Of a stretch of 55,377 nucleotides of DNA, positions 11,608 through 29,666 are shown in pieces. The number at the start of each line of letters is the position of its first letter. Position 1 is the stretch's first letter. Below the pieces are notes generated by a model that made no database searches, was not told the origin of the DNA, and saw nothing but the letters and a program-made list of their open reading frames with translations. The DNA comes from a bacterium (GTDB lineage: Bacteria; Patescibacteriota; Dojkabacteria; SC72; WJKH01): positions 1-55,377 of the forward strand of contig JAKPPS010000039.1 in assembly GCA_029547225.1 (NCBI GenBank). Direction: 5' to 3'. A program made the position numbers and the translations under genes.

Positions 11608-12738
11608 ATGAATCTTGCACAAGTTGATGAGATTTTGTTGCAAATAAGGCTTCCTTTGAGCCTTGTTTTGACACCTATCAATCTTGAAGTTGAGCGAAAA
11701 AAGTTTTTCGATTCAGATAGTTATGAACCACATTTCAAATATCGAGTTGTCAAGAACAAGAATTTACAGATATTTGAAAGTCTGAGTGAACTTGAGGAGA
11801 TTGATGATGTCGATCCTAGGATTTCCGATATGTATCTGAAATTAATAAGGCAGAAATCGGAAACTAACGATTTGATGAATAATGTCGGCAATAACGAAAA
11901 GTTTACGCAGATAGCTATTAAGAAATTTGGTATGCCAAGTGCAAAATTATTTCGAAATGCTTGCCGAGTTTTAAAAGGAAGAACTTCAATTTACAATGTA
12001 AAAAGTGATACGCGAATGCAGGATACCTCAAGCTTGAATTATTCAGAAATATCATCGATTGTTGATGAATTCTTTAGGTATGCAGGCTTAGAAGGCTGGA
12101 AATCGGGTATCTCTGCAAATATCGCTAGCAATGGTGTAAAAGCTGGTGTCAAAACAAAAGTTTTGCTTATGGATAAAGATATTATGAAAAAGCCTTTTGA
12201 CTTAAGAAAAACTATTGTCCATGAGATCGGCACTCATGTTCTTCGTGCAGAGAACGGCTTGAAATCAGGTTATGGAGTTTTTTCAAGAGCTAATCTTAAT
12301 TCGTATTTAGATACTGAGGAAGGGCTTGCACTTTACAATGAGGAACTTTTTGGCGTATTAACCCTTGAGTCTTTGCGTAAACGAGCTTTATTTGTTTACC
12401 TTATAGGGGTAGGGCAGAATTGTACTTTTAGAGAGCTTTACAATATTTCTTTAGGATTCTTGAAGCCAAAAGATGCTTTTAATACGGTATTGAGAGTCAA
12501 GCGAGGGATTGGTGATGGTTCCCAAGCTGGTATCTATCCAAAGGATATTGTGTATTTCAGAGGATTTAGAAGAGTTAGGAAGGCTATAGATCGCTCTCCA
12601 ACTATTTATAAATCTCTCTATGCGGGGAAAATCAGTCTCAAACAAGTAGAGTGGGTAGAGGAAGGTTTGTTGCCAAAAGCTAAGATATTTCCGGATAAAG
12701 AAGAGTATTCAAGATTATTCAAGAAATTGGGGATTTAA
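11608..12738 (+). CDS. DUF1704 / MATCAP-like zinc metallocarboxypeptidase
   Basis: HEIGTH (HExxxH) followed by TEEGLA, RVKRG and KDIVYFRG, LYAGKIS. ATG at 11608 avoids overlap with the upstream gene. Confidence 0.82.
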   Translation: MNLAQVDEILLQIRLPLSLVLTPINLEVERKKFFDSDSYEPHFKYRVVKNKNLQIFESLSELEEIDDVDPRISDMYLKLIRQKSETNDLMNNVGNNEKFTQIAIKKFGMPSAKLFRNACRVLKGRTSIYNVKSDTRMQDTSSLNYSEISSIVDEFFRYAGLEGWKSGISANIASNGVKAGVKTKVLLMDKDIMKKPFDLRKTIVHEIGTHVLRAENGLKSGYGVFSRANLNSYLDTEEGLALYNEELFGVLTLESLRKRALFVYLIGVGQNCTFRELYNISLGFLKPKDAFNTVLRVKRGIGDGSQAGIYPKDIVYFRGFRRVRKAIDRSPTIYKSLYAGKISLKQVEWVEEGLLPKAKIFPDKEEYSRLFKKLGI

Positions 12739-12830
12739 TCATTCGAAAATCTGTTCGCAAAATTGGATCAGCAGAACCTAAAAATTTCGAAAATGCTTAT
12801 TCACATGCGTGCGGAATTAGTCTACAAGTG

Positions 12831-12880
12831 CAATCTAGTACAACCTAGTGCAATCTAGTGCAATCTAGTGCAACCTTGTG
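12831..12880. repeat. 10-bp tandem repeat (consensus CAATCTAGTG, 5 copies)
   Basis: caatctagta caacctagtg caatctagtg caatctagtg caaccttgtg, between convergent genes. Confidence 0.9.
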
Positions 12881-12948
12881 TAATCGATTCTTGCACAAAG
12901 AATCAATCTAATAATAATGGAACTCCAGAAAGTAAAAGATTGCTAGCT

Positions 12949-13947
12949 CTAAATGAATGATAAAATCATCTCTTTTGCAATATTGATTATTTCGTAACCA
13001 TCTTTAGGCTCAATCTTTTTTTCATAAGCTTTAAATCCAGGATTCATGTTTACTTCGAGGACATAAGGCTTATCATCTTTGTAGATAACATCGATAGCCA
13101 TAAAGTCACTTTTGAAAGCTGTACCACATTTCTTAGCTAATTCGATAAGTCTATCCTCTGGGTTTGTAAGAAGCGAATATTCACCTTTATCAACGGTAAT
13201 AAATGATCGAGTTGCTTTACGGATCCAACCTGATATCAATTTATCTCCATTTACGAACAATCTCAGATCTTCACCTATGTCAGTAAACTCTTGCAAAAAG
13301 AAATCCTTCAACTCTTTTTTGTTAAGGTTTTCTTGAGCAAAGTCCTCAACCTTATTTATCATGTAAATATTCTTTTTTACAGTTGCATCAGAAGGTTCTA
13401 AATTTGACTCAGAAGTATTTGTATCAGAAATATTCGTTTTTGGTCTTAAGTCATTCTCACCTGAGACGTGTTTTGCAAGTACAGTTTTATTGTTAAAAAT
13501 TGATTGATAATCATCATAATTTCCATCAGCTCTATAAAATGAGTGTAGATAGGGGATATCATTCTGAGAAAAAATCAAAGCTTGTGTCAATTTTGAATAA
13601 TTGTGCATTATTTTAATAAAATCAGAGTTCTGTATTTTAATCTGTTTCTCTGGATTTTTTTTGTTGAAATTTTCTATATGTTCAACTATTAGTCGTTTTA
13701 TTTCATATTCTTCTCGGCTAAAATGTCCACGCATGATAATGTGAGTATAACTTGTAATATCTTCATTACGCACAAAAATACTGTAATTCCCGTCCTTTTG
13801 GTCAATCGATATTTCGTGGTTGTAAACATAATCGGAGGTGTGACCGAGCTTTGTAATCTCCTCTTGGAGTCTCTCTATGGCATATGGTGTCTTGTTTGAG
13901 TCACCAATCCTGGGTTGCTTATCTATAATGAGGAATTTATAGTTCAT
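12949..13947 (-). CDS. Divergent RimK/LysX-like ATP-grasp amino-acid ligase
   Basis: YAIERLQEE..KLGH N-domain, FLQEF..GEDLRLFV, MAIDV...YVLEVNMNPGF. Confidence 0.78.
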   Translation of the reverse strand: MNYKFLIIDKQPRIGDSNKTPYAIERLQEEITKLGHTSDYVYNHEISIDQKDGNYSIFVRNEDITSYTHIIMRGHFSREEYEIKRLIVEHIENFNKKNPEKQIKIQNSDFIKIMHNYSKLTQALIFSQNDIPYLHSFYRADGNYDDYQSIFNNKTVLAKHVSGENDLRPKTNISDTNTSESNLEPSDATVKKNIYMINKVEDFAQENLNKKELKDFFLQEFTDIGEDLRLFVNGDKLISGWIRKATRSFITVDKGEYSLLTNPEDRLIELAKKCGTAFKSDFMAIDVIYKDDKPYVLEVNMNPGFKAYEKKIEPKDGYEIINIAKEMILSFI

Positions 13948-14235
13948 ATATTTGGTATTAAAATTATATGATTATTTGGGTAAATTGTACCATACTTCCA
14001 CAGTAAATTCATTCTAAAATGAATATCACGATTATTGACCAAAAGTAGGGTAATAAAGTGTAAAAAAATATGCCTCAAAGTTGAGAATAGAAATAAAGAA
14101 AATTTGTAGGATTTATGCATAAAATCGTAGCGCAAATTATAGGTCGTTGCATATATTTCGTTACTTTGATATTCTTTACTAAGTAGTTCCTCTGCTACTG
14201 CCCTCAGAGGAACGTTAATTTATTATTATAATAGT

Positions 14236-15006
14236 ATGCAAGCACAAAATGACATGAATCCTGTTGAGAGAATAAGACAGGAGACGCAGGTTAATACCTA
14301 CGCAAAAACTAATTCTAAGGGCAAGGGAGATGGCCATGGTGGATTAGTTATAGCTGGTTTCTCAGCAACACTATTAATTGGATTAATAGTAGTGTTACTA
14401 GTTGGGGCAGGTGTTGTAGGTTATCTTTTTTATCAAGAAAAACAAAAACCAGATAACTCAGTAGAACTAGCAGATTATGAAGTACAACAAATGAAAGAGA
14501 AGATTGGCAAACTAATACTCTTACCATCCGATCAAGAGCCAACTGTTGCTACCATCGTTGATATCGAAAAACTAAAAGAAACAAACCCAACTTTTTATAA
14601 GAACGCTTCAAACGGAGATAAAATCTTAGTATATTCTGATAAAGCAATATTATATGATCCAGATAATAACATCATCTTAGATGTAGCTCCGATTGTTACA
14701 GATCCTGCTTCTCAATCAGCATCCTTAAGTGTTGAATTGAGAGATGCTTCTGACGCAAAAGACCTTGATCAGATAAGTGCTGAAATTGCAAATTATGGTT
14801 CACAGTTTGTTGTAGCAACCAAGTCAGAGTCTGCGGATGCAAGCGACAATGGTGTTGAAATATTTATAGTAACTACCGATGAAACAAAAATGCAGATGGC
14901 AAGTGCTTTAGCAACATCAATGGGTGCTCAGATAGTTGAATCGATGCCACAAGGAGAACAAGCACCAGCAGATGGTGTTGATGTAGTCATTGTTTATGGT
15001 GATTAA
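14236..15006 (+). CDS. Single-pass membrane protein with LytR C-terminal-like domain
   Basis: One TM helix; EPTVATIVD...FYKNA.NGDKILVY motif common in CPR proteins; ends DVVIVYGD as in LytR_C. Confidence 0.6.
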   Translation: MQAQNDMNPVERIRQETQVNTYAKTNSKGKGDGHGGLVIAGFSATLLIGLIVVLLVGAGVVGYLFYQEKQKPDNSVELADYEVQQMKEKIGKLILLPSDQEPTVATIVDIEKLKETNPTFYKNASNGDKILVYSDKAILYDPDNNIILDVAPIVTDPASQSASLSVELRDASDAKDLDQISAEIANYGSQFVVATKSESADASDNGVEIFIVTTDETKMQMASALATSMGAQIVESMPQGEQAPADGVDVVIVYGD

Positions 15007-15030
15007 TCAATTATTTCTTTGAGATATTAT

Positions 15031-15057
15031 CTCCCTCTGAAAAGAGGGAGTTTTTTT
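15031..15057 (+). terminator. Intrinsic terminator
   Basis: CTCCCTCT-GAAA-AGAGGGAG followed by T7. Confidence 0.88.
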
Positions 15058-15102
15058 ATCATTTATTAGACGAAAAAGTATTATTTGCTTCTAATATTTT
15101 TG

Positions 15103-15154
15103 GTATGCCACCAACCTTTGTACAATACACGAGACTTTTATCCATGACTACCCA
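15103..15154 (-). repeat. Dispersed two-box repeat, copy 1
   Basis: Minus strand TGGGTAGTCATGG-N25-GGTTGGTGGCATAC; both boxes are identical at 31674-31724 (+). Confidence 0.8.
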
Positions 15155-15313
15155 AGCATTTTGCTAAGCGCGATCTTGTGTACACCATGATGAAATAAAA
15201 TAAATAGTTTGTTAAAGGTAGTTGAAAGTATTATTAAAGGTGTGCAAGAGTTAATTCTATGCAAAACACGAGGATTGTAATGGTGACGGTTACTTGCTCT
15301 GTAAAACGGTTGG

Positions 15314-17125
15314 TTACAATTTTATTATCTCTTTGATTAATCTTTGGTCTATAGCTTGAGCAATGCCGTTATATCTCGTGAGATCAAATGAAGTAATTAG
15401 CGTATCAATCCTATCAAATCCTGTGCCATGTAGAGCGACTTGTTCCGGATTATCAAAGCAATGGCAAATAATATCGAGATTCCTATTCCTTTTAAGTGCA
15501 AGTATTGCATTTCGATATTGTAAATTACCATTTATCAAGTGCCCGTTATTGTATATTGTTTCGTTGTGATAGGTTCCGATATTCAGTTTCTCATTATGTA
15601 TTAATTCAGTAAGTTTCGTATCTGTAAGATATTTCTCAAGTTCTTTGAGTGGGTCGGCGGAGATTATAACTATCTTTTTACATTTATTATTTTGTACGAT
15701 TAATCCATCTACAAATTCTTTGATCGCTTCTGGACGATTTTTTCCTTCGGATGGAAAAATATTTAAATACATTTCAGGCATCATGTTTACCTCAAGAATC
15801 GTCCCATTTTCGAGTGTTAATGGGGCAGAGATATCTTTACATAGTATATCTATCCCGACGCAATAAGCATGCATGGATTTAGCTATTGAAACACAAATAT
15901 CTTTGATCTGAGGATGTACAATATCGGTAACATCTTTTGTCATACCACCTTGACTCATACTTGCAGTTTTGCGAACATAAATCCTTTGACCTTTTGTTGG
16001 AATATCAACGTATGATAAGTCTTGCTCTTTGAGGAATATCTCAAGCATCTCATTTTTTTCGATCGGCTTGAGTGTATGAGTTGGATTAAGTTTATCTCTG
16101 TTTGGATCTCTATTAATTTCATCTATGAGTTGTTCAATATTACTTGTGCCATCGCCGATAACATAAGCAGGTATTCTTTTAGTTGCGGCAACATATTTTC
16201 CATTGATTATCAAAATTCGATAATCTTCTCCGCTAACTTGTTCTTGGATAATAATCTTTGTTTGCCAAACGGCTCTTATTTTCTTATGTATTGCTTCATA
16301 AGCCATTTGTATCGCTTTATAAGCCTGTTCTTTTGAAATAATATTTGTCGTTACTCCAGCACCACCGGTAAGTCCGTTTGGTTTTATTACAAAGGGTTTT
16401 TTATAATTGTCGAAAATACGATCAACCTCAAGTTTGCAATCATCAATCTCTTCTCCAAGTAAGTGCCAAGGAGCGTTTGGTAGTCCGAGATTATCAAAAA
16501 ATGTATTTGAAGGTATTTTATCTCTTTGTATTTTTTGTGCGATATGACTATCAAAAGATGAAGATGCGGCACAGTTGATAGAACTTTCACATGCGATTCC
16601 AAGCAAATAATACTTATTTATTGACGAAATCCCTTCGCCAGATCTTTGATTAACGAAAAACTGATTTATTTCGTAACCTTGGTCGATTGTTTCAGTAAGG
16701 ATTGGAATTGTACTCATCGATTCAATCTGTTTCTTAATAATGTCGGAATGGATTTTATTATTGGTTTCTTCAAAACTAAGTTTTGCATCTAGATACTCAT
16801 ATACAACATTAAAAATCTCTGACCAGAGATTGGGTAGGTGAGAGTAAACAATAAATTTGTGGATATCAATAGTTGCTTTTTCTTCGCCATTGTGGGTAAT
16901 TTTATCTTTCAATCCACTAATAGAGACATTTTCACCTTTTCGAAATGTGTGTAGCAGTTTATCGTATTTGCTGTAGTATTCAATCCTGTCGCCAAATAAT
17001 CGGTGGTAATTAATGATTATATTTAATAGCTCAATTATCTTTTCATCAACAATATAGCTCGATTTGAAAGAAATCGAAGTCAACATGCTATCTAAGTTTA
17101 TTCCTTGAATTATTTTTATCTCCAT
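15314..17125 (-). CDS. Cyanophycin synthetase-like ATP-grasp protein (N+G domains, degenerate short C-domain; CphA2-like architecture)
   Basis: VIKPNGLTGGAGVT, GEDYRILII...RIPAYVIGDGTSNIEQLI, TASMSQGG..DVTDIVHP, LEVNMMP; no GTNGKT Mur-ligase P-loop. Confidence 0.78.
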   Translation of the reverse strand: MEIKIIQGINLDSMLTSISFKSSYIVDEKIIELLNIIINYHRLFGDRIEYYSKYDKLLHTFRKGENVSISGLKDKITHNGEEKATIDIHKFIVYSHLPNLWSEIFNVVYEYLDAKLSFEETNNKIHSDIIKKQIESMSTIPILTETIDQGYEINQFFVNQRSGEGISSINKYYLLGIACESSINCAASSSFDSHIAQKIQRDKIPSNTFFDNLGLPNAPWHLLGEEIDDCKLEVDRIFDNYKKPFVIKPNGLTGGAGVTTNIISKEQAYKAIQMAYEAIHKKIRAVWQTKIIIQEQVSGEDYRILIINGKYVAATKRIPAYVIGDGTSNIEQLIDEINRDPNRDKLNPTHTLKPIEKNEMLEIFLKEQDLSYVDIPTKGQRIYVRKTASMSQGGMTKDVTDIVHPQIKDICVSIAKSMHAYCVGIDILCKDISAPLTLENGTILEVNMMPEMYLNIFPSEGKNRPEAIKEFVDGLIVQNNKCKKIVIISADPLKELEKYLTDTKLTELIHNEKLNIGTYHNETIYNNGHLINGNLQYRNAILALKRNRNLDIICHCFDNPEQVALHGTGFDRIDTLITSFDLTRYNGIAQAIDQRLIKEIIKL

Positions 17126-17171
17126 TTTGCTATATTGAGTTAACTTAATACAAATTATTTTTGTGTATTGC

Positions 17172-18416
17172 TTATATACCTCTGAGTTCTAAAGCATCTG
17201 CAACTTTCTTTACTGAGAGAGCATAAGTGCCCATGCGCATATCAGTGCCTAGACTCTTTGTCGATTGATGTGCTTCGTTAAATGCTTTTACCATCAATCC
17301 TTGAAGTTGTTTTTCAACCTCTTCTTTTGACCAGTAATAACCTTGACGATTTTGTACCCATTCAAAATAGGATACTGTTACGCCTCCTGAGTTCGCCAAT
17401 ACATCTGGAACCGATAAGATACCTTTATCTGCCAATATGTAATCAGCTTCTGGTGTTACAGGCCCATTAGCCATCTCAATTATATATTTTGCGTTGATGC
17501 TGTCGGCATTATCTTTTGTTATGACATTTTCTATTGCGGCTGGCACTAATACGCTCACAGGCAATTCTAACAATGACTTATTATCAACCTCTTTTTCTTT
17601 TGCAAATTCAGTAATTATCTTTTTATCCTCGTAAATGTGCTTTATCAATTTGTTGACATCAATACCTTTTCTATCATAGATACCTCCATTGATATCGCTA
17701 ATTGCCACAATCTTGAAACCTTTTTCATAAGCTAACCTTGCGAAGTGAGAGCCAACATTTCCAAAACCTTGTACAGCAATTTCAGTATCTTTAGGTGATA
17801 AACCTTGGAGCTTTGATAATTCGTTGAGGATAAAAACACCACCAAGCCCAGTTGCTTCAGTTCTACCTTGAGAGCCGCCTAATTCGATCGGCTTAGCAGT
17901 GATAGTCGCTGGTTGCCAAGAGCCTTTGATTTTGCTGTATTCGTCAATCATCCAGGCCATAATCTGTGAATTTGTATTCATGTCTGGAGCGGGTACATCA
18001 ATATCGGGTCCGATCAAGTCTGCAACAGCTCTTATATATCCTCGAGATAATCTTTCTATTTCACCAATTGATAATTTTGTTGGGTCGACTGTGATACCAC
18101 CTTTTGCACCACCGTAAGGGATACCAGTTACAGCGCATTTCCAAGTCATCCATACTGATAATGCTTTAACTTCATTTAGGTCAACTTGGGGTGCGTATCT
18201 GAGTCCTCCTTTGTATGGTCCTCTTGCGTTACAGTGTTGTGCTCGATATCCAGTAAATACTTTAGTAGTGCCATCGTCCATCACAACTGGGATGTTTACT
18301 TCTAAAACTCTATCATGTTTTGATAGTCTAGCTACTGTGCTTTCCTTTAATTTTATTATCTTTGCAACTTTCTCAAGCTGTTCGATAGCATTTTGGTATG
18401 CATTATTTTTTTCCAT
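17172..18416 (-). CDS. gdhA: Glutamate dehydrogenase (Glu/Leu/Phe/Val dehydrogenase family)
   Basis: GPYKGGLRY, MTWKCA, GGAKGG, DVPAPD, QGFGNVG, NSGGVTVSYFEWVQN. Confidence 0.93.
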   Translation of the reverse strand: MEKNNAYQNAIEQLEKVAKIIKLKESTVARLSKHDRVLEVNIPVVMDDGTTKVFTGYRAQHCNARGPYKGGLRYAPQVDLNEVKALSVWMTWKCAVTGIPYGGAKGGITVDPTKLSIGEIERLSRGYIRAVADLIGPDIDVPAPDMNTNSQIMAWMIDEYSKIKGSWQPATITAKPIELGGSQGRTEATGLGGVFILNELSKLQGLSPKDTEIAVQGFGNVGSHFARLAYEKGFKIVAISDINGGIYDRKGIDVNKLIKHIYEDKKIITEFAKEKEVDNKSLLELPVSVLVPAAIENVITKDNADSINAKYIIEMANGPVTPEADYILADKGILSVPDVLANSGGVTVSYFEWVQNRQGYYWSKEEVEKQLQGLMVKAFNEAHQSTKSLGTDMRMGTYALSVKKVADALELRGI

Positions 18417-18524
18417 AATATTTAGATAAAAATTTAGATACTATTTATACATTGTAAATACTGCAAAATATTACACCTTGTTATTTATTGTTACAATATT
18501 GAAATAGAAATTAATCGAAAAAGC

Positions 18525-19706: not shown

Positions 19707-19809
19707 ATTTGATATTGTATCTCAATTAGTTCGCTTGAGCAATTGCGAAATATAATTATAAATAATTTTAAGTAAAATCACTTGATTTTTATTTAATTTT
19801 GAGCGATTA

Positions 19810-19984
19810 TTAAAGAATGAAGCGAGAGAAGTACCAAGCTTGCTTGAGGACTTCCGAGCGAATGAGTTAACACGTAGTCTTAAGGAATGAAGCGAGAGAA
19901 GGCAAGCTTGCTTGAGGATTTCCGAGCGAATGAGTTAACACGATAGTCTTAAGGAATGGAGCGAGAGAAGGCAAGCTTGCTTGA
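19810..19984. repeat. ~69-70-bp tandem repeat (2.5 copies), REP-like
   Basis: Unit TAAGGAATGAAGCGAGAGAAGGCAAGCTTGCTTGAGGATTTCCGAGCGAATGAGTTAACACG(A)TAGTCT starts at 19811, 19881, 19950; contains palindrome CAAGCTTG. Confidence 0.92.
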
Positions 19985-20036: not shown

Positions 20037-23000
20037 TTGAGTACTACAAAAAACACTTTTTCTTTTATTAACTTGATCAGGTTCATATTGATCTTGGGGC
20101 TTTTTGTTACAGTTTTTTATGCAACTTTTGATAGGCAGATAGCACGCACTTTTGGTACTCATACGATGCCAGAGTATGATGGTAAATTTCCGCTGAATAG
20201 CAATTATGCCTTTAGTCATGTTATTGATATTGGTGCGAATCTGGATAGTGTAACTATTGCTGACCAGTTTCATGATAATGTTGATTGCGTTTATTATACA
20301 GATTTTTATGTATTTGATCTCGCAGGTTCGCTTATTACTTCTTGGTCTGATGATACGCTTGGTCGTATAGGCGGTATGGATATGACTGAAGATGGTAGAG
20401 TGGTGCTTGTGGATGAGAGTAATTTAATTATCGTGACTTATGATAGTGATGGTTCAAACCGTTCAGACAGGGGACTTAATTTACCAAGCCAAGCGTCTAG
20501 TTTTGTGATTGAGGGTTTGACTCTTTCTCAAGGTGGAGATGTGTATGTCGGAGTTGAATATACAGATGACACAGAATACAACAAAATATATAAATACTCT
20601 CGCAACGGCGAATTTGTTACAAGTTGGGGAGAAAGAGGTACGGGTCTTGGTCAATTTTCTGACATAATAGCTTTAAATCTTGATTCAGATGGGTATATTT
20701 ATGTGTTAGATGAAGCAGGTAAAGTCGCAAAATTTACTCCTGATGGAACTTTTGTCTATGAGTTTAATCATGGGATCGTTCCCAATCCTGGTGAATCAAT
20801 CGTTGATATTGCTATTGATAATACTGACACAATAATGGTTTCTTATCAACAGTATGTCTATTTGTATGATCAGACAGGTGGATATATCGATCGAAGAGAT
20901 ATTAGTACTGAGGCGTATTGGGGAGAGGCAGTTAGTTGGTTGAGAATAGATGTTAATAGTGATGGAGAAATATTGATAGGTGACGATGGTAATCAGGGTA
21001 TATATTATTATGATGATTCTTTCGCATTACTTGATAGATTTTTGTCAAAAATATCTTGGGAGGGTGGCATAATACCATCTTATACTGGTGATGGTGATAT
21101 GGTAATTGACGTTAATGGAAACCTTTTCTTTACGAATAATCTAGATAAAACAACGGTTTACAATAGTGAGGGGATATTGATAGATGCTCTCGAAATTTAT
21201 GCTGAAGGTGGTATGGATTTTGATAACCAAGGTAATTTATATTATGTTGATAGTGGTAATTTTATTAGGCAGTACGATAGCAATAGAAATCCTATAAGTA
21301 CTTGGGGCAACCAAGGTTTAGGCAATGATATTGAGTACGCAGAAAAAATCGCAATCAGTCCAGATGGATATATATATCTTACTGATCCTCGGGGTTGTTA
21401 CTACAAAGTTGATAATAGTCATAATGTTATATTCAAGAGGTGTAACAGTGAGATTGATGGTCAACCTAATTTACACACATATATAACAGATTTGGTTTTT
21501 GATAGCCAAGGTAACTATTATATAATTTTTAATGAGAATGATTTAAGTCATGTTAGTGCTTTTACATCAGAGGATGTTTTTATTGAAAGTTGGGGGAGTG
21601 AGGGCACTGCAGATGATCAATTTAATTATGTCTCCTCAATGACTATTGATCATAATGATGATTTATGGGTTGCTGATACAGGAGCAGATTGTATCAAAAG
21701 GTTTACAACGGATGGTGAATATACAGGTAAGATTTGCGATTATGATGGAAACCCATTTGAAACTGTAGCATATATTATGTATCAAGATGGAGTTATATAT
21801 GTTGCAGATGCTTCAACTCGAGAGATAGTTATGTTTTCATTTGATACTTTGCCACCAGAAATTGATATTGTAGCGCCTACGAAAAATAAGACTGCTACGA
21901 TAACAGATACGACAATTGAGATTTATGATAATCGCGGTTTGTTATCCGAAGATATTGTTGTTGATAATGCTTCAACAGCAGATTATACAAATCTTAGTTG
22001 TCAGCAAGTAGATCCTAATAATGTAAGCTGTACAATAAATATTACCTCTAGCGGTAACTTGATTATTAATGCAATCGATATTGAGGGAAATCTTGCCACT
22101 TTAAGTGAAAATGGCTATGTTGTAGATTTGCCACCAGTACCTGTGATACTTACAAGTGTTGATGGTGTAACTGGTTTTGCCGATAATGATACTCTGACAT
22201 TTAGTTTAGAAAATCGTAGTCCTGTCATTGTGGGAGTATCAGATCCTGATACAACAATTTTCTTTTTAGCTGGTACAAATCGTTATCAAGCAACTCCTGA
22301 TGCTGGGGGAAATTTCACCTTGACTTTACAAAATCCACGCTTACCTCAAGGTTCTTCTGTGTCATTGTTATATTGGGCAAGAGATGGTAGTCGATCCTTA
22401 TCTACGGTAAAAACGCTAAATATTACTGTTACGGCACCTGATGTGGACACTGCTGAGACTCAACCGATTTATCAATATCTATATCTTCCAAAAGGAGCTC
22501 AGCGTCCTTCTGGCACAACACCAATTGTTGAACTTCCTACTGTTGTACCATATGAACAGGTCGAACTACCAACGATAGTAACAGAGGAAGAAACCATCCC
22601 AATACCAACAAGACGTCTTCCAAATACACAAGTTGAGAATATCGGTACTAGTTGGATAACATCAGAACAAGCTCAGGAGATAGCGATGTGGAGTGCTGGC
22701 GGAGCAGTTGTAGCATTTACTGTTGCAATGATATTAGGAGAATCGAATCCTGTTGCATATGTATTTAGATTTATTACTTACGCTTTTGGTTGGTTGAAGG
22801 TCAAGAAAAAGCATAATTCGTTTATTGTCGTTTATGATGCTGTTACAAAGGAGCCAATCTCGTTGGCGATAATAAGGTTTATTAAGTCAGGTGGTGGTCT
22901 TGTAGATACTCAGGTTACAAATGAATATGGGGTTGTGGATGTTGCATTGCCAGACGGAGAATACAATCTTGTTGTTGCCGCTCGAGATTACAAATATCCA

Positions 23001-23594
23001 ACTAGTGTTATCACAGTAAGTAATGATGAAGTTTATGAAAACATTTTTCGTGGTGGCAAGCTTAATGCAAAAGAGGGTATACCTCTAAATATTTCGATAC
23101 CTCTTGATCCGATTTTGAGTAGTGATAAAGCTTACAATGTAGCAAAATTCAGAAGTGTATTAGCGAATATGGTTGAAGTATTGCAATATCTACTTTTAGT
23201 TGTTGGTTTTATTTTTGCAGGTATAGCTTATCTAGGATCAAGTACTACACTAAATCTTGTTGTGCTGGCTTTATATTTCTTAATAATCATTATAAATATT
23301 TATATAGCAATAAAAGGTAACAAAAATTATGGTCAGGTAAAAGACACTTATGGAAACTTTATTTCAGGTATGACTTTGTCTTTAGTTGAGAATAAATATG
23401 ACAGAGTAACTGCAGTTAGAGTTACCGATAAAAAAGGTAAGTATAGATTTGTTGTCCCGCAAGCAGAGTATTCAATTAAAAGTAGTGATGAAAAATATCG
23501 CTTACAAGAGAATATTATTATAAGTAAGAGTAAAGAATCAACCAGTTCACTCATAATAAACAAAAATATATTAGTAGAAAGGATAAGCAAATGA
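20037..23594 (+). CDS. Large NHL-repeat (beta-propeller) surface protein with Ig-like, TM and carboxypeptidase-regulatory-like domains
   Basis: N-terminal hydrophobic segment; NHL repeats (WGERGTGLGQF...DSDGYIYVLD; WGSEGTADDQF...LWVADT); Pro/Thr linker; TM helices; VYDAVTKEPI and VTDKKGKYRF modules. Confidence 0.8.
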   Translation: MSTTKNTFSFINLIRFILILGLFVTVFYATFDRQIARTFGTHTMPEYDGKFPLNSNYAFSHVIDIGANLDSVTIADQFHDNVDCVYYTDFYVFDLAGSLITSWSDDTLGRIGGMDMTEDGRVVLVDESNLIIVTYDSDGSNRSDRGLNLPSQASSFVIEGLTLSQGGDVYVGVEYTDDTEYNKIYKYSRNGEFVTSWGERGTGLGQFSDIIALNLDSDGYIYVLDEAGKVAKFTPDGTFVYEFNHGIVPNPGESIVDIAIDNTDTIMVSYQQYVYLYDQTGGYIDRRDISTEAYWGEAVSWLRIDVNSDGEILIGDDGNQGIYYYDDSFALLDRFLSKISWEGGIIPSYTGDGDMVIDVNGNLFFTNNLDKTTVYNSEGILIDALEIYAEGGMDFDNQGNLYYVDSGNFIRQYDSNRNPISTWGNQGLGNDIEYAEKIAISPDGYIYLTDPRGCYYKVDNSHNVIFKRCNSEIDGQPNLHTYITDLVFDSQGNYYIIFNENDLSHVSAFTSEDVFIESWGSEGTADDQFNYVSSMTIDHNDDLWVADTGADCIKRFTTDGEYTGKICDYDGNPFETVAYIMYQDGVIYVADASTREIVMFSFDTLPPEIDIVAPTKNKTATITDTTIEIYDNRGLLSEDIVVDNASTADYTNLSCQQVDPNNVSCTINITSSGNLIINAIDIEGNLATLSENGYVVDLPPVPVILTSVDGVTGFADNDTLTFSLENRSPVIVGVSDPDTTIFFLAGTNRYQATPDAGGNFTLTLQNPRLPQGSSVSLLYWARDGSRSLSTVKTLNITVTAPDVDTAETQPIYQYLYLPKGAQRPSGTTPIVELPTVVPYEQVELPTIVTEEETIPIPTRRLPNTQVENIGTSWITSEQAQEIAMWSAGGAVVAFTVAMILGESNPVAYVFRFITYAFGWLKVKKKHNSFIVVYDAVTKEPISLAIIRFIKSGGGLVDTQVTNEYGVVDVALPDGEYNLVVAARDYKYPTSVITVSNDEVYENIFRGGKLNAKEGIPLNISIPLDPILSSDKAYNVAKFRSVLANMVEVLQYLLLVVGFIFAGIAYLGSSTTLNLVVLALYFLIIIINIYIAIKGNKNYGQVKDTYGNFISGMTLSLVENKYDRVTAVRVTDKKGKYRFVVPQAEYSIKSSDEKYRLQENIIISKSKESTSSLIINKNILVERISK

Positions 23595-26500
23595 GAATAT
23601 TAAAAACAATTACAAAAAAGAGATATTTGGAAAAATTAGCAAGTATTGTTCTTACATTAATAATCTCTTTCTCATCGCTTATATCAATTTTCCCAGTTCA
23701 GCAATCAAAAGCTTATCAATTAGTCGGCTTAGAAGATATTGGCAATATCATGCCAGGTTCAACGGATGACTTTACTGCCGAGAGTTTCAAAGATGAAGAA
23801 GGGACTATGATTTTTTATGATGTAGATAGTGCTTTCGAAATTCATATTTCTCAGATAAACAAAAGTGGGGAATTGATATGGAGTAATATGTATATCGATC
23901 TCTCAACTTATGGAATAGATCCGTACGCTCCATCTTTACAACATGATTATATAATTACAGATGGAGATGGTGGAGTATTTATTTTTGGATCAAAGGTTGT
24001 TGATTATGGAGATAATTCACATTTTGATAATAATAATAATGTTAGGAATATTTATGTAGTCCATGTGCTTGTGGATGGAAGTATTGATGCAGAATTTCCA
24101 CAAAGATTTATGCCTGCATCATTCGATCAAGAAATTCTTTCAGCTTGGCCAGATTATCAGGGCGGTTTTGGTATTTTTTATAAGTCTAAAGTTTTGAGTG
24201 ATTTTATATTTGAGTATAGACTACAACATGTTTCTGCTGATGGTACATTGCTCTACAATGTTAATGACTATGTAGATGTGCCACAAGTTAGTATGCACTG
24301 TACAAATCAAGATTTAGCTTCTCAGGCTCAGATCCCTTTTGATATGCAATATTATCATTATGGTTTTTCCTTTTATGGATGGAGAGAGTGTTGGGAGTGG
24401 TGTCAAGAAACTATTGATGACGCTCATCCTTTTTGCCAATATACAGCAACAGATAATCGCAGTTGTTCTGTAATCGGAGCTCCCGGAGAAAATATTGATA
24501 ATTGTACTTGGGATACGCTATCTAATAGCTTGGGAAACAAATGGCCAGCATTTTATGGAGTCAAACAAGATTTATTACCAATAACTTCAGGTGACGATAT
24601 AATTATGGAGCCTTATGCTCAAGCCTTGGATAATGTGGGTATATTAGTTGGTGAAAGCTCGATATATCATCCAAGTTATATGTCTGAATATCTACTTGAA
24701 GTTAAAGATGCAAAGTATCTTGCAGATGGAGATTTACAAATTATGTTTGAAAGAAAAAACTATGAATTTGAATCAACAGAAAGTATTGTGGTACAGCAAT
24801 ATGATGCAATAACATTTACTCCCAAATATGATGGTATGGGTATAGAGTATCACGGAGATGCACCTTTGACAGATCTATCAAACCCTTATGGTATTGAATA
24901 TAACGGTAAATTACTCGGTGAAGAAGGTTGGTATATTACTCAGATTAGAGATATGGATTTAGATTCTAATAGAGAGAAATTGATTATTGCAAAGCATAAT
25001 TTTGATGGTACTTTATCTTGGCAAAATACTTACGAATATGAGCTTGATAATGATGTCTATTCTTTTAGTTACGATTTTCGGTATACACCTCTTTCTAATC
25101 TTGTGGTGGACGATCAAAATAATCTAATTTTTGCTTGGGATGTATATAATTGGATGGAATCAGATTATTTTCTGATGTCTTTTTATCAAAAATATGACAA
25201 AAACGATGGTACCGGTATGTGGGGTACTTATCCAAATGAGTTAGTCAGTTACGAATATAGTGTAGGCAATCTACTTTGGGAGACTGCGCTTTATACTGAT
25301 AGTGATAACGGTGCTTTCATAACATTCTTTGTGGATGATGAAGATGCAAATTTTTTGATAGGTCGTATTGATGAGAATGGCATTTTTGATGATTTTAATC
25401 AAAGTATTTTTATCGGGCCATGGACAAGTAATTGGCCAAATGTTTTCAAAGGAAATACTGGAGATGGGTTATTTGCACTTGCCGGTCCAGGTCTACTTGA
25501 TATATATAAAATGAAACTAGCTAACCAAATAAAAGTAAACCAAGGGTATGCAGTATATAGTGATGAAGTAACTAATTTTATTGATACGACCACAGATATT
25601 GGAGTTACAAAAGATGATAATAATTATCAAAATCGTGTTAGAATATTTAATAATGCATTGATGGTATCTTCTCTATTTGCTGATGTCAGCACGGATAGAG
25701 ATTGGACAAATGTTGTAGCTCAAAATAGCTTAGAATTACAAAAGGCTTTTATTACAGGCTTTGATTCAACAGATGGAAATTATCTTTTCCATGATTTATA
25801 TATCCCATATGATTCTCAATTACCACTTGCTGCAAGAGCGATTGTATGTCCTGATGCAACAAGTTTTGCAACGATAAGTCGTACATGTACAGGAGCTTAT
25901 GCTATTAATGTGGATCAGGCAATAAATCCTCTCAGCCTTGTTTCATTTGGAGGTTTATCATATTGGAAAATACCAAATCTGACAGGTACGGGAGTTATGC
26001 TTGAAAGTGCATCTACATTTGAAATTACTCCAAGCGTATCCCAAGTCGAGCCATCAACAGAAATATCTGTAATAGTCAGTGCGCTTGATGCAGATGGCCA
26101 AGTCGATACTAATTATGTTGGTACGATAAATTTAATATCTCAGTCAGGTGCTGTTTTGCCTTCGAGTTATACATTTACGGTTGCAGACGCAGGTGTACAC
26201 ACATTCACAGGTGTAAAATTTAACAATACAGGTACATATACAATTATGGCCACAGATACACTAGATCCAACATTGAGCGGTGTTTCGGCGAATATTATTT
26301 CTGCAGATGCGGACTGGGATAATGGAGAAGAGGATCCAGATATAGTTGTGCCACCACAAGATCAAGAAACAATAATCATTGATCCTTCATGTGCAACAAA
26401 TACACAAAGGGAAGAATGCCAAGCAGAATTAACTATCAGCAATGTTGAAATTATAGATGATAATGATGGAGATACAAATATTGACAGATCAGTATGTTGG

Positions 26501-27211
26501 GATACCAATCTCGAATCTCAAGGATTAATAAATTATGGTACGGAACAAGAAGAATTTTATCAGTTCTCTTCACCAGCAGAAATTAATTATGTTGTTACAA
26601 ACCATTGTATTAATATTGATGAGCTAGAAAACAATAGTAGATATTTTTTCAAAATCTCATCAGTTTCTTATGCCGGTAAAGAAACTGAATACGAAGGCAC
26701 TTTTGATATCGGTAACTATCTTGGAGATCAAATTGACCAGCCCGAAGATTTTATTATTGTCGATGAGGAAGAGGTTATATCTCAGTCAGAAGCTATTATT
26801 GATACAGAGGGATTACTTGATCTTAATCTCGATTTACAATTCAAGACACCACAAGAGGCGACATGTTATTTAAAATATGGATTATCATTAAATAATCTCG
26901 ATAAACAGAGTCAATCAAATACAGTTGGTACTGTCCATAATTACAATATTAATCTTCAAGACCTCTCCTATGAAGATAAAGTTTTTTATGAAGCCTATTG
27001 TCAGAGGATTATCGAGGAAGGTCAAACAGATGCAGGCGGAGAAATGTTATATCTCAAAAGAGGTACTGTTGAGATGGTCCAGATTGATACTGTAGATGAA
27101 CAGAAAACTGTAACAGTTACTGTAATGCTTGGATTATTCTTGATAGGCTTGATATCTGTAGTTCTTTTGATAACGGGATATCTTAAGATTACTAAGAAAA
27201 AAACTATTTAG
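23591..27211 (+). CDS. Large acidic secreted/surface protein with Ig/Fn3-like domains and C-terminal TM anchor
   Basis: Signal peptide; LPSSYTFTVADAGVHTF module; WDTN...INYG...HCINIDELENNSRYFF (Fn3-like); C-terminal TM plus KKK. ATGA overlap with the upstream gene. Confidence 0.75.
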   Translation: MRILKTITKKRYLEKLASIVLTLIISFSSLISIFPVQQSKAYQLVGLEDIGNIMPGSTDDFTAESFKDEEGTMIFYDVDSAFEIHISQINKSGELIWSNMYIDLSTYGIDPYAPSLQHDYIITDGDGGVFIFGSKVVDYGDNSHFDNNNNVRNIYVVHVLVDGSIDAEFPQRFMPASFDQEILSAWPDYQGGFGIFYKSKVLSDFIFEYRLQHVSADGTLLYNVNDYVDVPQVSMHCTNQDLASQAQIPFDMQYYHYGFSFYGWRECWEWCQETIDDAHPFCQYTATDNRSCSVIGAPGENIDNCTWDTLSNSLGNKWPAFYGVKQDLLPITSGDDIIMEPYAQALDNVGILVGESSIYHPSYMSEYLLEVKDAKYLADGDLQIMFERKNYEFESTESIVVQQYDAITFTPKYDGMGIEYHGDAPLTDLSNPYGIEYNGKLLGEEGWYITQIRDMDLDSNREKLIIAKHNFDGTLSWQNTYEYELDNDVYSFSYDFRYTPLSNLVVDDQNNLIFAWDVYNWMESDYFLMSFYQKYDKNDGTGMWGTYPNELVSYEYSVGNLLWETALYTDSDNGAFITFFVDDEDANFLIGRIDENGIFDDFNQSIFIGPWTSNWPNVFKGNTGDGLFALAGPGLLDIYKMKLANQIKVNQGYAVYSDEVTNFIDTTTDIGVTKDDNNYQNRVRIFNNALMVSSLFADVSTDRDWTNVVAQNSLELQKAFITGFDSTDGNYLFHDLYIPYDSQLPLAARAIVCPDATSFATISRTCTGAYAINVDQAINPLSLVSFGGLSYWKIPNLTGTGVMLESASTFEITPSVSQVEPSTEISVIVSALDADGQVDTNYVGTINLISQSGAVLPSSYTFTVADAGVHTFTGVKFNNTGTYTIMATDTLDPTLSGVSANIISADADWDNGEEDPDIVVPPQDQETIIIDPSCATNTQREECQAELTISNVEIIDDNDGDTNIDRSVCWDTNLESQGLINYGTEQEEFYQFSSPAEINYVVTNHCINIDELENNSRYFFKISSVSYAGKETEYEGTFDIGNYLGDQIDQPEDFIIVDEEEVISQSEAIIDTEGLLDLNLDLQFKTPQEATCYLKYGLSLNNLDKQSQSNTVGTVHNYNINLQDLSYEDKVFYEAYCQRIIEEGQTDAGGEMLYLKRGTVEMVQIDTVDEQKTVTVTVMLGLFLIGLISVVLLITGYLKITKKKTI

Positions 27212-27493
27212 CACTCTTAACTAATGATAAAGCAGATTTATCTCTTGATAAGCATTGAAATAAGAAAAATATTAGCATTATGTAACCATGCGTTAATATG
27301 CTGAATTATCCGTCACCATTACTAACCGAGAGCTAGACAACAAAAAGCCATTGCCATATTTTGAAACTATCTTTAAAAGAGGACATAAAGTAGTTCCGTT
27401 CTCTTGATATTGAAGCGAAATATAGATGATTATTTATAAATCATCATATCTTAAGTAAGTAAAATTTGAAGTGTATTAGGGTAATAGCAATCT

Positions 27494-29017
27494 CTATCTC
27501 ACAAAAGTTTTACTTGGATCAATAAGGAAACCTTTTAATTCTTTACGACCGATGAGTAGGGGAAAGATCATCTCTTTTTGGGTACTTATGATTGTCTCAA
27601 ATTTCATTGTTAGACCGCGCATTTTGATATCTATTTCGATAACAGGTTTTACACGGATTTTACCATCTTCAAAAATTTTTGCGAGACGGACTATTTCACC
27701 TTTATTATTCTCTTTTTCTATAATAACCTTTTCTACTTTATCAATAAATTCTTGAGCATCAGCATAATTTTCAAAGGATCTCGGTATATCCAATTTATTA
27801 AAATTTTTTATTGTTTCAGCAAAACCTATTTGAGCAGCAAGTCCATCATCGATACGAGAAGTTGTTATGCCAGTATCGAGTAAACCCTTGATGGTAGAAG
27901 TTTTTTGTTTAATTTTGATTTTATTTTTTTTCAGTTTGATTTTAGTTGTTGGCTTATGATAAACAATAATTTTCTCTACAAGATTGACTATTTCTTTACC
28001 TGATAACTGTTCAATATCCTCCTCAACTTGACCTCCGAAAAGATCTTTTGCAATCCTGATACCATGTTTATCATTTTTTATGTTTATTTTCTTAACTAGT
28101 TCGAGACGATCTCTTAGTCCACACATATTAGCTATTTGGATCGCTAGACCGGGTCTAGCGTTGAGTTCAAAGACCATAGGGCCATTATCTCGGTCAATCG
28201 CGATGTCGACACCTGCGAAGCCAAGGCCACTAGCTTTTTGGCATTTGATGGAAATATCTAATATTTCGTTCCAATAAGGGATTTTGAAACCTCTTAAAGG
28301 AAGATTAATATCTAAATCAAGCGTTGAATCAACAATGTCATAAATATCGTCGATAAGGGATTTTTTATTTCTATGGATAGCGACAGTTGTCAATCCTGAA
28401 GCTAAATCGATACCGACACCGATGCCTCCAGCGTGGAGATTTGCAGTACCATTAGATTCTTTTGTTGGGATGCGCAATTCTGCCATAATAGGGACACCTT
28501 TAAAAACAATAACTCGAACATCTGGAACTCCTTTATAACAATATTGTTTTAATGTGGCGTCGTTTTTTAAGCGCTCTTCAATTATTGCAATATCTTTCTC
28601 TTCACCCATCGAAAATCTACCGTCTAATATGTTTTCGATATGTAATTGGATGTCTCTTTGAGTCATAATTTGTCCATTTGGCCTAATCCATGCCTGTTGG
28701 TCATTTACAAGTTTTTTTTGTTTTCCGTAAAAAACAATAATTCCATTTCCTCCTGTACCGCGGTTTGGCTTTATGACAAAACTTTTTGGTAAATTTGCCC
28801 AATCAAGATTGTTGATCTGTTTTTTACTTCGGATCACAAAAAATAATTCGGGAGTTTTTATGTTTATCCTCGAAAGTAGGCGCTTAGTTAATAATTTGCT
28901 GTCAACAATTTTTTTAGCCCAACGAGGATTGTATGGTCTTACATATTCTTGATTACGGCGATTTATACCCAATATCTCGCCAGTAATATTTTTATTTTGT
29001 AATATTTCTGCTATCAC
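27494..29017 (-). CDS. Alpha-L-glutamate ligase-like ATP-grasp protein fused to a C-terminal retropepsin-like (RimB-type) protease domain
   Basis: ILGINRRN..YNP..VDSKL, FVIKPNRGTGGNGI, GVPDVRVIV, ANLHAGG, FELNARPGLAIQIAN; C-terminal LLDTGITTSRID and PLLIGRKEL. Confidence 0.85.
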   Translation of the reverse strand: MIAEILQNKNITGEILGINRRNQEYVRPYNPRWAKKIVDSKLLTKRLLSRINIKTPELFFVIRSKKQINNLDWANLPKSFVIKPNRGTGGNGIIVFYGKQKKLVNDQQAWIRPNGQIMTQRDIQLHIENILDGRFSMGEEKDIAIIEERLKNDATLKQYCYKGVPDVRVIVFKGVPIMAELRIPTKESNGTANLHAGGIGVGIDLASGLTTVAIHRNKKSLIDDIYDIVDSTLDLDINLPLRGFKIPYWNEILDISIKCQKASGLGFAGVDIAIDRDNGPMVFELNARPGLAIQIANMCGLRDRLELVKKINIKNDKHGIRIAKDLFGGQVEEDIEQLSGKEIVNLVEKIIVYHKPTTKIKLKKNKIKIKQKTSTIKGLLDTGITTSRIDDGLAAQIGFAETIKNFNKLDIPRSFENYADAQEFIDKVEKVIIEKENNKGEIVRLAKIFEDGKIRVKPVIEIDIKMRGLTMKFETIISTQKEMIFPLLIGRKELKGFLIDPSKTFVR

Positions 29018-29666
29018 GCTCGAGTATTTGTTTAAATCTAAATAATTCTGTGAATCTCAAAGAGCTTGATTTACCAATCAAAACATTGATTAAAATTATG
29101 ATAGCTAATATCCACAAATTCCCGAATAGAAAGTTTGATATTGGGGCAAATTTCATAATCGACCAGCCAAGTAAAGCAATTAAAATGGTTTCAGCGATTG
29201 ATCTGATCGTTGTTGCTATATCCTTTTTAATGTAAATTTTCAGGATAAAATCTGATAAGGTCGCTATCAAAGCTACTGAGACGGGTGATAGAGTAGAGAA
29301 GTTTAGTCCAAATTGTAAAAATGGAATAGCGTTAACTAATAATAGTACTCCTGCTAAAACCAATACGAGAATTATGTAATTGGTTGTTAGTCTGGCGATA
29401 TAATGCATCCTAATTTTTTTTAATAAGGCATGCGAAAGTAATGTAGTTGCTATTACTATCAGTGTAAAAAATATTCCAAGTTTAGCGCCAGAAAGAAAAT
29501 ATGCAAGAGCTAAAATAAGTGCTGGGTACACTCCCAGGCCTTTGAGTCCAATAAGATATCTGAATACATTTGTTAAAGTTGCCGTAACCGGAATCAAGAT
29601 AATCAGGGTTAATATCATCTCTTGTGATAATCCATTATTTGTAAGCCACATTGTTATTTCATTCAT
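28992..29666 (-). CDS. 7TM-domain protein (7TM module of inactive-transglutaminase systems)
   Basis: About 7 TM helices; RYLIGLKGLGVYP, RMHYIAR, LRFTELFRF; overlaps the glutamate-ligase-like gene. Confidence 0.82.
   Translation of the reverse strand: MNEITMWLTNNGLSQEMILTLIILIPVTATLTNVFRYLIGLKGLGVYPALILALAYFLSGAKLGIFFTLIVIATTLLSHALLKKIRMHYIARLTTNYIILVLVLAGVLLLVNAIPFLQFGLNFSTLSPVSVALIATLSDFILKIYIKKDIATTIRSIAETILIALLGWSIMKFAPISNFLFGNLWILAIIILINVLIGKSSSLRFTELFRFKQILERDSRNITK

Follow-up and report, generated by a model that had tools for sequence, protein, structure and literature searches.

The window, i.e. the whole stretch of 55,377 nucleotides analyzed here, comes from contig JAKPPS010000039.1 of a genome assembly (GCA_029547225.1; 1.01 Mb, 59 contigs, 84% complete) that belongs to the Candidatus Dojkabacteria (WS6), a lineage of the Patescibacteria. 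It encodes four ATP-grasp ligases, a seven-transmembrane (7TM) protein and two peptidase domains, one of them fused to a ligase, which, as argued below, probably represent the scattered parts of a single amidoligase-peptidase system. The gene families were assigned from Pfam and NCBIfam searches of the open reading frames (ORFs) of the window (Table 1). All components named in a preliminary description of this DNA, namely the four ligases, glutamate dehydrogenase (GDH), the 7TM protein, a retropepsin-like domain and a DUF1704 peptidase, proved to be encoded where that description had placed them; the start that it gave for the DUF1704 gene, 11608, is the in-frame Met14 of an ORF that begins at 11569. 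Their grouping exceeds what chance would give: a scan of the whole assembly with the RimK hidden Markov model (HMM) yielded four matches, all in this region, and blastp found no further paralogue of the four ligases elsewhere in the genome. That all RimK-type ATP-grasp genes of the assembly belong to one unit argues for an important function.

Table 1. Genes of the region, with coordinates in the window, strand and the basis of each assignment
Feature	Position	Strand	Basis or remark
mreB	9042-10058	+	Pfam MreB_Mbl, E 1.4e-129
Wzy_C/O-antigen-ligase-like membrane protein	10101-11594	+	Pfam Wzy_C, E 2.6e-14
MATCAP/DUF1704 'QEGLA' metallocarboxypeptidase	11569-12738	+	Pfam MATCAP, E 7.4e-31
RimK-family ATP-grasp ligase	12949-13947	-	Pfam RimK, E 7e-10
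ORF of 256 amino acids (aa), one N-terminal transmembrane segment	14236-15006	+	no Pfam or NCBIfam family
CphA2-architecture ligase, 603 aa	15314-17125	-	NCBIfam cyanophycin synthetase, E 1.9e-64 (best match)
Glutamate dehydrogenase (gdhA)	17172-18416	-	both ELFV domains, E 1e-77 and 1.4e-58
Stand-alone CphA G-domain-like ligase, 393 aa	18525-19706	-	NCBIfam cyanophycin synthetase, E 3.3e-63, below cut-off
Two giant membrane/surface proteins, 1185 and 1206 aa	20037-27211	+	NHL/SGL-type repeats, CarboxypepD_reg domains
RloC-like ATPgrasp_ST ligase with C-terminal retropepsin domain, 507 aa	27494-29017	-	Pfam ATPgrasp_ST, E 1.9e-64
RloB-like 7TM protein, 224 aa	28992-29666	-	Pfam 7TM_transglut, E 8.3e-15
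134-aa ORF of no family and DHH/DHHA1 phosphoesterase	29822-31547	+	between the 7TM gene and L7/L12
Ribosomal cluster L7/L12-L10-L1-L11	past the DHH gene

In related genomes the same genes form a compact cluster. Whole-genome searches covered 41 genomes, that of the window and 40 others of its order, and found the CphA2-like ligase in 39 of them, the RloC-like fusion in all 41 (in one case weakly), DUF1704 in 39 and the RimK-like ligase in 37. Twelve loci were fetched and annotated, and 80 further loci were examined by tblastn; the titles of the related loci read Candidatus Dojkabacteria or candidate division WS6, with many labeled generically as 'uncultured Candidatus Saccharibacteria'. The recurring order starts at L7/L12 and proceeds through the genes for the 7TM protein, the RloC-retropepsin fusion, a CphA-like ligase (~327 aa), a CphA2-like ligase (~565 aa) and a RimK-like ligase (~317 aa), which is the last gene of the ancestral operon and is met from the opposite strand by DUF1704 and mreB. 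Forty-five loci extend for 7.5 kb or more past the RloC-like gene on its downstream side; all six genes are found in the canonical order and strand in 42 of these, within a median span of 6.9 kb, and the median gaps between the five co-directional genes (-14, 9, 10 and 2 bp) amount to operon spacing. The preliminary description had made its proposal depend on the co-location of these genes in related genomes, and co-located they are. The gap between DUF1704 and mreB does not exceed 150 bp in 48 of the 52 Dojkabacteria loci that have both, and outside the Dojkabacteria mreB was near the system in none of 16 loci. We regard mreB as a conserved neighbor that heads an mreB-(wzy-like)-DUF1704 transcription unit, and we ascribe no functional part to it. 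The window has kept the ancestral order, with insertions that spread the genes apart.

The association of ligase and peptidase extends well beyond the order. In a sample of 401 Patescibacteria genomes, the RloC-like ligase was found in 128, DUF1704 in 61 and CphA-like ATP-grasp genes in 109. Outside the order, the RloC-like ligase is present in 106 genomes and DUF1704 in 41, all of which are among the 106, and 30 of the 41 have DUF1704 at most 10 kb away from the RloC-like gene. Moreover, in 22 of these genomes a single open frame of 671-916 aa encodes both the RloC-like ligase and DUF1704; seven such fusions were checked by ORF extraction and blast and one by Pfam, the latter being a protein of 794 aa that matches ATPgrasp_ST (E 2e-69) and MATCAP (E 3.6e-56). 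A search with the fusion against 1.84 billion cluster representatives gave 3688 matches at E<=0.001, and of the best 150 about 68, by our own count, match it over its full length (750-840 aa); the few named members belong to Patescibacteria or Peregrinibacteria. Thus, the RloC-like ligase occurs fused either to a retropepsin, in Dojkabacteria and others, or to a MATCAP-like peptidase, and this welding of the ligase to either type of peptidase strongly suggests that both enzymes work on one and the same molecule.

The other components of the cluster recur in these lineages as well. The 7TM protein is longer there (500-530 aa) and has an N-terminal ectodomain, a PKD domain in the one protein that was scanned. 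One to three CphA-like genes often follow; of the 47 genomes with both a CphA-like and the RloC-like gene, 24 have the two no more than 10 kb apart. In a genome of another Patescibacteria family (G104, L100:6482-9040), a full CphA1-type synthetase of 852 aa, with ATP-grasp, Mur_ligase_M and Mur_ligase_C domains, directly follows the RloB-like and RloC-like genes. Some other clusters (L099:7104-10420 of G053; L095:7947-9674; L101:8344-9804; L108:3990-5288) encode extra divergent MATCAP paralogues of 432-575 aa; a formylglutamate-amidohydrolase (FGase)-like protein and a further, CPSase_L_D2-like ATP-grasp are also found in them, and TTL/YheCD-like ATP-grasp genes likewise occur in these lineages.

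The RloC-like protein of the window scores 218 bits with ATPgrasp_ST (cut-off 31.4) and 279.8 bits with TIGR02291 (cut-off 314.2). Its C-terminal domain, about residues 365-507, stays below the cut-off of the Zn_protease/RloA-like family when searched as a single sequence (21.3 bits versus 27); a profile of 40 homologues confirms it, as the same 140 residues, DTG motif included, align with PDB entries 9g58 and 9g59 (E 4.8e-9; a 'putative ATP-dependent zinc protease domain' of the Zn_protease/RimB-like family) and with the DDI1 retropepsins (E 3e-4). The motif itself, D381-T382-G383, is nearly invariant among 48 sequences. In one relative (L011 of genome G019) the catalytic Asp reads Asn (INTG), and the retropepsin domain of that fusion may be inactive. 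In the structural model of the window's fusion (predicted local distance difference test, pLDDT, 89), the ligase part is most similar to ArgX/LysX and RimK; a Foldseek search with the whole model returned ATP-grasp matches only and did not pick up the small C-terminal domain.

The gene for the 7TM protein overlaps that of the RloC-like ligase by 26 nt. Its product comprises the 7TM part only, aligning to positions 309-506 of the 508-position RloB model; 7TM_transglut is matched by all 32 homologues and was the sole family returned when remote kin were sought in Pfam at E<=1. In the Atlas, a comparison by features gave no usable match, and one by structure gave a weak Rnf-Nqr-like likeness (template modeling score, TM, 0.50) from which nothing is concluded. 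Residues R36, Y37, H88 and Y89 (within 'RMHY'), N194 and R210-F211 are invariant, which is more than a passive anchor needs; the preliminary description was right about the presence of a 7TM protein, and its term 'anchor' may undersell it. A predicted complex of the 7TM protein with the RloC-like fusion scored 0.56, the best of three controls scoring 0.00, with at least 80% contact agreement between runs and partner pLDDT of at least 78. Solved complexes passed the mark in 58 of 80 cases and mismatched pairs in 2 of 110, and passing scores of 0.60 or less were those of 7 of the 80 solved complexes and of both passing mismatched pairs; the model thus hints weakly that the fusion may bind the 7TM protein.

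The DUF1704 protein scores 107.8 bits with the MATCAP/DUF1704 family of Pfam (cut-off 27) and 120 bits (E 1.2e-34) with TIGR02421, whose equivalog cut-off of 338.65 it does not reach. It aligns to human MATCAP (7z5g, E 6e-12) so that HEIGTH and TEEGLA match residue for residue, and it carries the PF08014 domain with the HExxxH motif and the third ligand in EEG. None of the 71 homologues, among which are fusion forms, departs from H218-E219-x3-H223 or from E251-G252. In TMCP/MATCAP, the HExxxH/EEG site is described as removing C-terminal Tyr or Glu and shortening polyglutamate chains (PMC10499314), and the bacterial protein is predicted to be a chain-trimming exopeptidase. The published record on 'QEGLA' that we found consists of a table entry: the part of a Photobacterium damselae study that holds it (PMC10308900) shows a 'QEGLA motif protein' (RS17025), its neighbor annotated as GshB (RS17020), an ATP-grasp enzyme, and RimK as strongly induced at low salinity, which echoes the osmotic phenotype of rlo mutants.

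The 603-aa ligase has CphA2 (8fxh, E 5e-41) as its best PDB chain. Its AlphaFold2 model (pLDDT 91) has its best fold match in CphA2 as well (7ta5, E 9.4e-40, TM 0.69/0.71), with CphA1 next; as the match to 7ta5 extends over the whole length, the protein has an N domain, an ATP-grasp G domain and a truncated M domain, and there is no Mur-ligase match in Pfam. The residues described for the CphA2 of Stanieria were transferred to 51 homologues via a HMMER alignment. The Arg that binds the primer carboxylate (R308 equivalent) is invariant in all 51, and in the incoming-substrate pocket D362 is Asp in 50 of 51 (Asn in the window), R389 is Arg in 50 of 51 and S395 is Ser in 51 of 51; the position of N393 is Ser in every sequence, and that of H208 varies among the homologues. 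The 603-aa protein probably extends a chain in the manner of CphA, which makes it the predicted chain polymerase of the cluster, and it is unlikely that this chain is canonical cyanophycin.

The E-x-N motif is retained in the ligases. The 393-aa ligase, which matches CphA1 (7lgn, E 6.6e-35), belongs to a family that keeps it in 84 of 84 sequences; residues 134-193 of the window's protein form a 60-aa insert, rich in Ser, Thr, Gly and Ile, that none of the 83 aligned relatives (323-347 aa) has. The fourth ligase passes the Pfam cut-off for RimK (39.3 versus 21) and stays below the subfamily cut-off of TIGR00768 (44.6 versus 143.4); its profile matches RimK structures 5zct and 4iwx (E 1.4e-9), its model compares with RimK clusters in the Atlas at TM of about 0.75, and it is a RimK-family ATP-grasp protein with a pre-ATP-grasp N domain.

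Several genes between these components are lineage-specific insertions, namely gdhA, the 256-aa ORF, the wzy-like gene and the genes of the two giant proteins. The preliminary description had joined ligases, peptidases, membrane protein and GDH into one pathway; for the ligases, the two peptidases and the 7TM protein this view is supported by the compact cluster of the relatives and by the fusions, whereas gdhA has to be taken out. It is present in 8 of the 41 genomes of the order, in the other seven on another contig or far from the cluster, and within about 10 kb in none of the 80 Dojkabacteria loci. Only in the genome of the window does it stand between the two CphA-like genes, with gaps of 108 and 46 bp, which argues only for local co-transcription after a single-genome event, so that its role would at most be to link, in this genome alone, the supply of glutamate to the ligases. 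The 256-aa ORF, which divides the ancestral operon and is followed by a terminator-like hairpin at 15031-15050, is likewise absent from all 80 loci, as are the two giant proteins with their transmembrane segments and beta-propeller repeats, which separate the CphA-like gene from the RloC-like one; the C-terminal part of the first giant protein has a paralogue on contig C30 (31% identity). The wzy-like gene, found in 3 of the 80 loci and also in a relative of the same family (L002), overlaps the start of DUF1704 by 26 nt. The 134-aa ORF and the DHH gene beside L7/L12 are also inserted here, in a place where most relatives have about 150 bp.

Independent data support this layout. A 4474-nt contig assembled from a DNA run on another sample (X2) repeats positions 13605-18078 with no differences and supports the order of the 256-aa ORF, the CphA2-like gene and gdhA; the insertion is therefore not an assembly artefact of this bin. 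Near-identical DNA is present in activated-sludge and wastewater runs under several study codes. Contigs from metatranscriptome libraries (two study codes, at least 99% identity) touch the DUF1704, RimK-like, 256-aa, CphA2-like, GDH and CphA-like genes and hint at their transcription, with the limits that these contigs are short, make up small shares, may reflect DNA carry-over and are silent on expression level and operon structure. Promoter and terminator scans gave counts not above those of shuffles (95 versus 92.9 and 10 versus 9.1), so that no transcription units were derived from them, and Rfam detected in the window five tRNAs only, with no leader or riboswitch.

Starting from the identities of the genes, their conservation, the fusions and the intact motifs, we infer an amino-acid chain, its acidity, a division of labor among the four ligases and a role for the membrane protein. 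In our view, with a probability of roughly 60%, the region is a pulled-apart copy of one conserved, expanded Rlo/Rim-type amidoligase-peptidase system that builds and trims such a chain. The fusions, together with the parallels to RimK/RimB and rloABC, suggest a chain that the ligases would build at the 7TM protein and the peptidases, both of them, would cut and trim. Specifically, a growing chain, most likely an acidic one, would be extended by the ATP-grasp ligases, which would spend ATP to join amino acids or dipeptides to its carboxyl end or side chains, with the CphA2-architecture enzyme acting as a polymerase on a primer. Synthesis would take place at the membrane on the 7TM protein, which might also pass the product or a substrate across. 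The fused retropepsin would make internal cuts and the MATCAP-like enzyme would trim from the C-terminus, the two of them setting the length of the chain or recycling it. No hydrophobic N-terminus or signal peptide was detected in the ligases or peptidases, and since both peptidases lack one, trimming would be cytoplasmic.

Several observations weigh against this reading. The gene order of small genomes is rigid, and the L7/L12 and mreB flanks are conserved too, so that synteny within the order is weak evidence by itself. In the genome of the window, opposite-strand genes split the operon into three or more units; hence, co-regulation is not assured here. CphA-like ligases without RloC occur in 35 of the 82 genomes listed outside the order, so that their membership is looser than that of DUF1704 and they look like a recruited component. 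All four ligases score below the curated equivalog cut-offs; their product, substrate and target are all putative, and the glutamate or otherwise acidic chemistry is suggested by family analogy alone. The Asp that in CphA2 holds the Arg side chain (D212 equivalent) is Lys in the window and variable in the family (K 19, E 13, T 6 and N 5 of 51). In the RimK-like family, 30 of 37 sequences have Ser for the Mg-binding Asn of E-x-N, followed two positions later by a conserved His, and proteins with this Ser may work differently or not at all, although the window keeps the canonical Asn. Finally, the weak pass of the predicted complex has to be counted on this side as well.

The significance of such a system would lie in its bearer. 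Patescibacteria have genomes of about 1 Mb and almost no biosynthesis, and yet this class keeps four ATP-consuming ligases in one conserved unit. In Pseudomonas aeruginosa, the Rlo operon is connected with osmotic tolerance, biofilm and antibiotic resistance, and its versions in the candidate phyla radiation (CPR) point to a peptide-chain product; the ligase-MATCAP fusions provide a bacterial context for a peptidase family otherwise known from tubulin biology. One may go further and suggest, quite tentatively, that the cluster makes an undescribed non-ribosomal polyamide, with the CphA2-like enzyme polymerizing the backbone, up to three other ligases adding side-chain or terminal residues, the 7TM protein handing the chain to the surface and the two peptidases controlling its length. 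If so, it would add a fourth kind to the bacterial poly-amino acids cyanophycin, poly-gamma-glutamate and epsilon-polylysine, belong to the core traits of an entire CPR class and tell, in biochemical terms, what the Rlo system makes. In a bolder variant still, the ligase-MATCAP fusions would be the bacterial root of the writer-eraser logic of eukaryotic tubulin tails.

Among the alternatives, the one that survives best is tagging of a protein C-terminus, whereby the ligases would add, and the peptidases remove, a tail on a specific protein, perhaps a ribosomal or cytoskeletal neighbor. This would parallel the action of RimK/RimB on ribosomal protein S6 and of TTL/TTLL with MATCAP/CCP on tubulin, and much of the above fits it: the likeness of the RloC-like model to ArgX/LysX and RimK, enzymes that act on protein C-termini, the RimK fold of the fourth ligase, the MATCAP homology with its intact motifs, the close linkage of DUF1704 to mreB, the position of the cluster next to L10-L7/L12, and the ligase-carboxypeptidase fusions, which resemble a writer-eraser pair. 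However, the candidate targets are poor ones. Escherichia coli RimK extends a Glu-Glu end of S6, whereas S6 of this genome ends in ...KKKEMDI; the C-terminus of MreB varies and is not acidic, and that of L7/L12 reads ...VELK/VELA. Acidic C-termini were found in only 4 ORFs of the genome, none of a known target class, and mreB does not accompany the system outside the Dojkabacteria. Since a CphA2-type N-G-M enzyme and a 7TM partner suit polymer synthesis better, we consider tagging unlikely.

True cyanophycin metabolism, in which the CphA-like pair would make or re-polymerize beta-Asp-Arg as a nitrogen store with the other genes as accessories, appears improbable. The 603-aa protein does match CphA2 and CphA1 best by sequence and by fold, the residues for the primer carboxylate and the incoming substrate are largely kept (R308, D362, R389, S395), and a full CphA1-type enzyme occupies an equivalent position in G104. 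Yet the residue that would have to recognize arginine is gone: D212 of the Stanieria CphA2, which is salt-bridged to the Arg side chain of cyanophycin according to the available text of the preprint (bioRxiv 10.1101/2023.04.15.537035), is Lys in the window, N393 has given way to Ser throughout, and the score with the NCBIfam cyanophycin synthetase model is 218 bits against a cut-off of 877. The genome does encode an S51-family peptidase of 227 aa (G000:C39:60945-61628; L001:1225-1908), which might hydrolyse Asp-X dipeptides, but this protein is weakly PepE-like (38.8 bits versus 156) and no cyanophycinase model was matched. Nor would cyanophycin account for the RloC-like, RimK-like, retropepsin and MATCAP partners.

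Cell-envelope chemistry has still less in its favor, and we regard it as very doubtful. Here the ligases would modify peptidoglycan precursors or a surface glycopolymer, or supply a dipeptide of the D-Ala-D-Ala type, and the peptidases would remodel the result. A canonical Ddl (PF07478) was indeed not found in this 84%-complete genome despite four Mur ligases, nor in the single-contig relatives G006, G026 and G027; the Pfam name of the RloC family reads 'sugar-transfer associated', the neighborhood includes mreB and, in the genome of the window, a Wzy_C-like gene, and the P. aeruginosa rlo mutants are reported in the available preprint text to have altered cell shape and ampicillin sensitivity (bioRxiv 10.1101/2025.03.18.643919). 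Across the relatives, however, a strong Ddl (E<1e-30) is present in about 19 of 41 and the cluster in 37-41 of 41, so that the cluster occurs both with and without Ddl; neither peptidase has a signal peptide or a hydrophobic N-terminus, and no glycosyltransferase is conserved in the cluster. Lastly, that there is no single system at all and independent amidoligase modules are merely held together by the rigid gene order of small genomes, as the equally syntenic housekeeping flanks, the CphA-like ligases that occur without RloC and the unrelated insertions of the window might suggest, is scarcely credible in view of the ligase-peptidase fusions in 22 genomes, the recurrence of the adjacency in distant families with different flanks and the operon-like spacing of five genes.

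The component families and the Rlo/Rim logic are already known, and the Pfam family names reportedly go back to the comparative genomics of Iyer et al. in 2009. We did not find in print the five-gene, four-ligase operon of Dojkabacteria, the wide spread of an Rlo-type module in Patescibacteria or the ligase-MATCAP fusions: no paper was found on DUF1704 together with ATP-grasp or on Dojkabacteria with ATP-grasp/RimK, and the accessible text of the literature on Patescibacteria and cyanophycin yielded nothing on this cluster. A paper on LdmS was examined for a link to CphA and has none, and one on the Klebsiella CfmP concerns a TupA-like ATP-grasp enzyme that is irrelevant here.

Of the known systems, the closest to the amidoligase-peptidase system proposed here is RloABC of P. 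aeruginosa, which, as far as the available text of the preprint describes it (bioRxiv 10.1101/2025.03.18.643919), likewise groups a 7TM_transglut protein with a TIGR02291/ATPgrasp_ST ligase and a RimB-like retropepsin; the ligase of the window falls just short of the TIGR02291 cut-off. In P. aeruginosa, mutants that lack every RloA protease are impaired, and deletion of rloB or rloC relieves their defects, i.e. ligase and membrane protein act upstream of the protease; RloA has a positively charged substrate channel. The differences are also clear. RloA is secreted and comes from a separate gene with a signal peptide, whereas the retropepsin here is the C-terminus of the ligase and has none; RloB combines an inactive transglutaminase ectodomain with seven transmembrane segments, whereas the 224-aa protein lacks the whole N-terminal ectodomain, and the one RloB-like protein scanned outside the class has PKD and 7TM_transglut with no transglutaminase-like match. 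The present system also has a MATCAP-like peptidase and three more ATP-grasp ligases. The same preprint text gives 96% of RloB matches as proteobacterial, to be set against a module in 128 of 401 Patescibacteria genomes.

Similarly, in RimK/RimB an ATP-grasp enzyme of the alpha-L-glutamate-ligase type is paired or fused with a retropepsin that cuts its product, and the present cluster also has a RimK-family ligase. RimB is described, in the portion of the source available, as a retropepsin that cuts polyglutamate and stimulates RimK, with an active RimB-RimK hybrid (PMC11957791). The protease stands N-terminal to RimK in RimBK and C-terminal to an ATPgrasp_ST ligase in the present fusion; the cluster includes a membrane partner and CphA-like ligases in addition, and S6 of this genome is without a Glu-Glu end. 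With CphA2 (7ta5, 8fxh/8fxi), the 603-aa protein shares the same three-domain build of N, G and truncated M, the ATP-grasp catalytic residues and most incoming-substrate residues, at about 20% identity, judging from what the available text on that enzyme (bioRxiv 10.1101/2023.04.15.537035) describes. It differs in that the Arg-binding Asp is lost, in that its operon also encodes a 7TM protein and three more ligases, and in that it comes from a non-cyanobacterial lineage with a minimal genome in which no cyanophycinase was found.

Finally, MATCAP/TMCP (KIAA0895L; 7z5g), as far as the text at hand describes it (PMC10499314), shares with the DUF1704 protein the PF08014 domain and the aligned HExxxH and EEG motifs. 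The protein of the window is bacterial and has no microtubule-binding regions. MATCAP pairs with TTL/TTLL, and its bacterial relative likewise pairs with ATP-grasp 'writers'; the difference is that in Patescibacteria the peptidase is fused, or adjacent, to its presumed writer.

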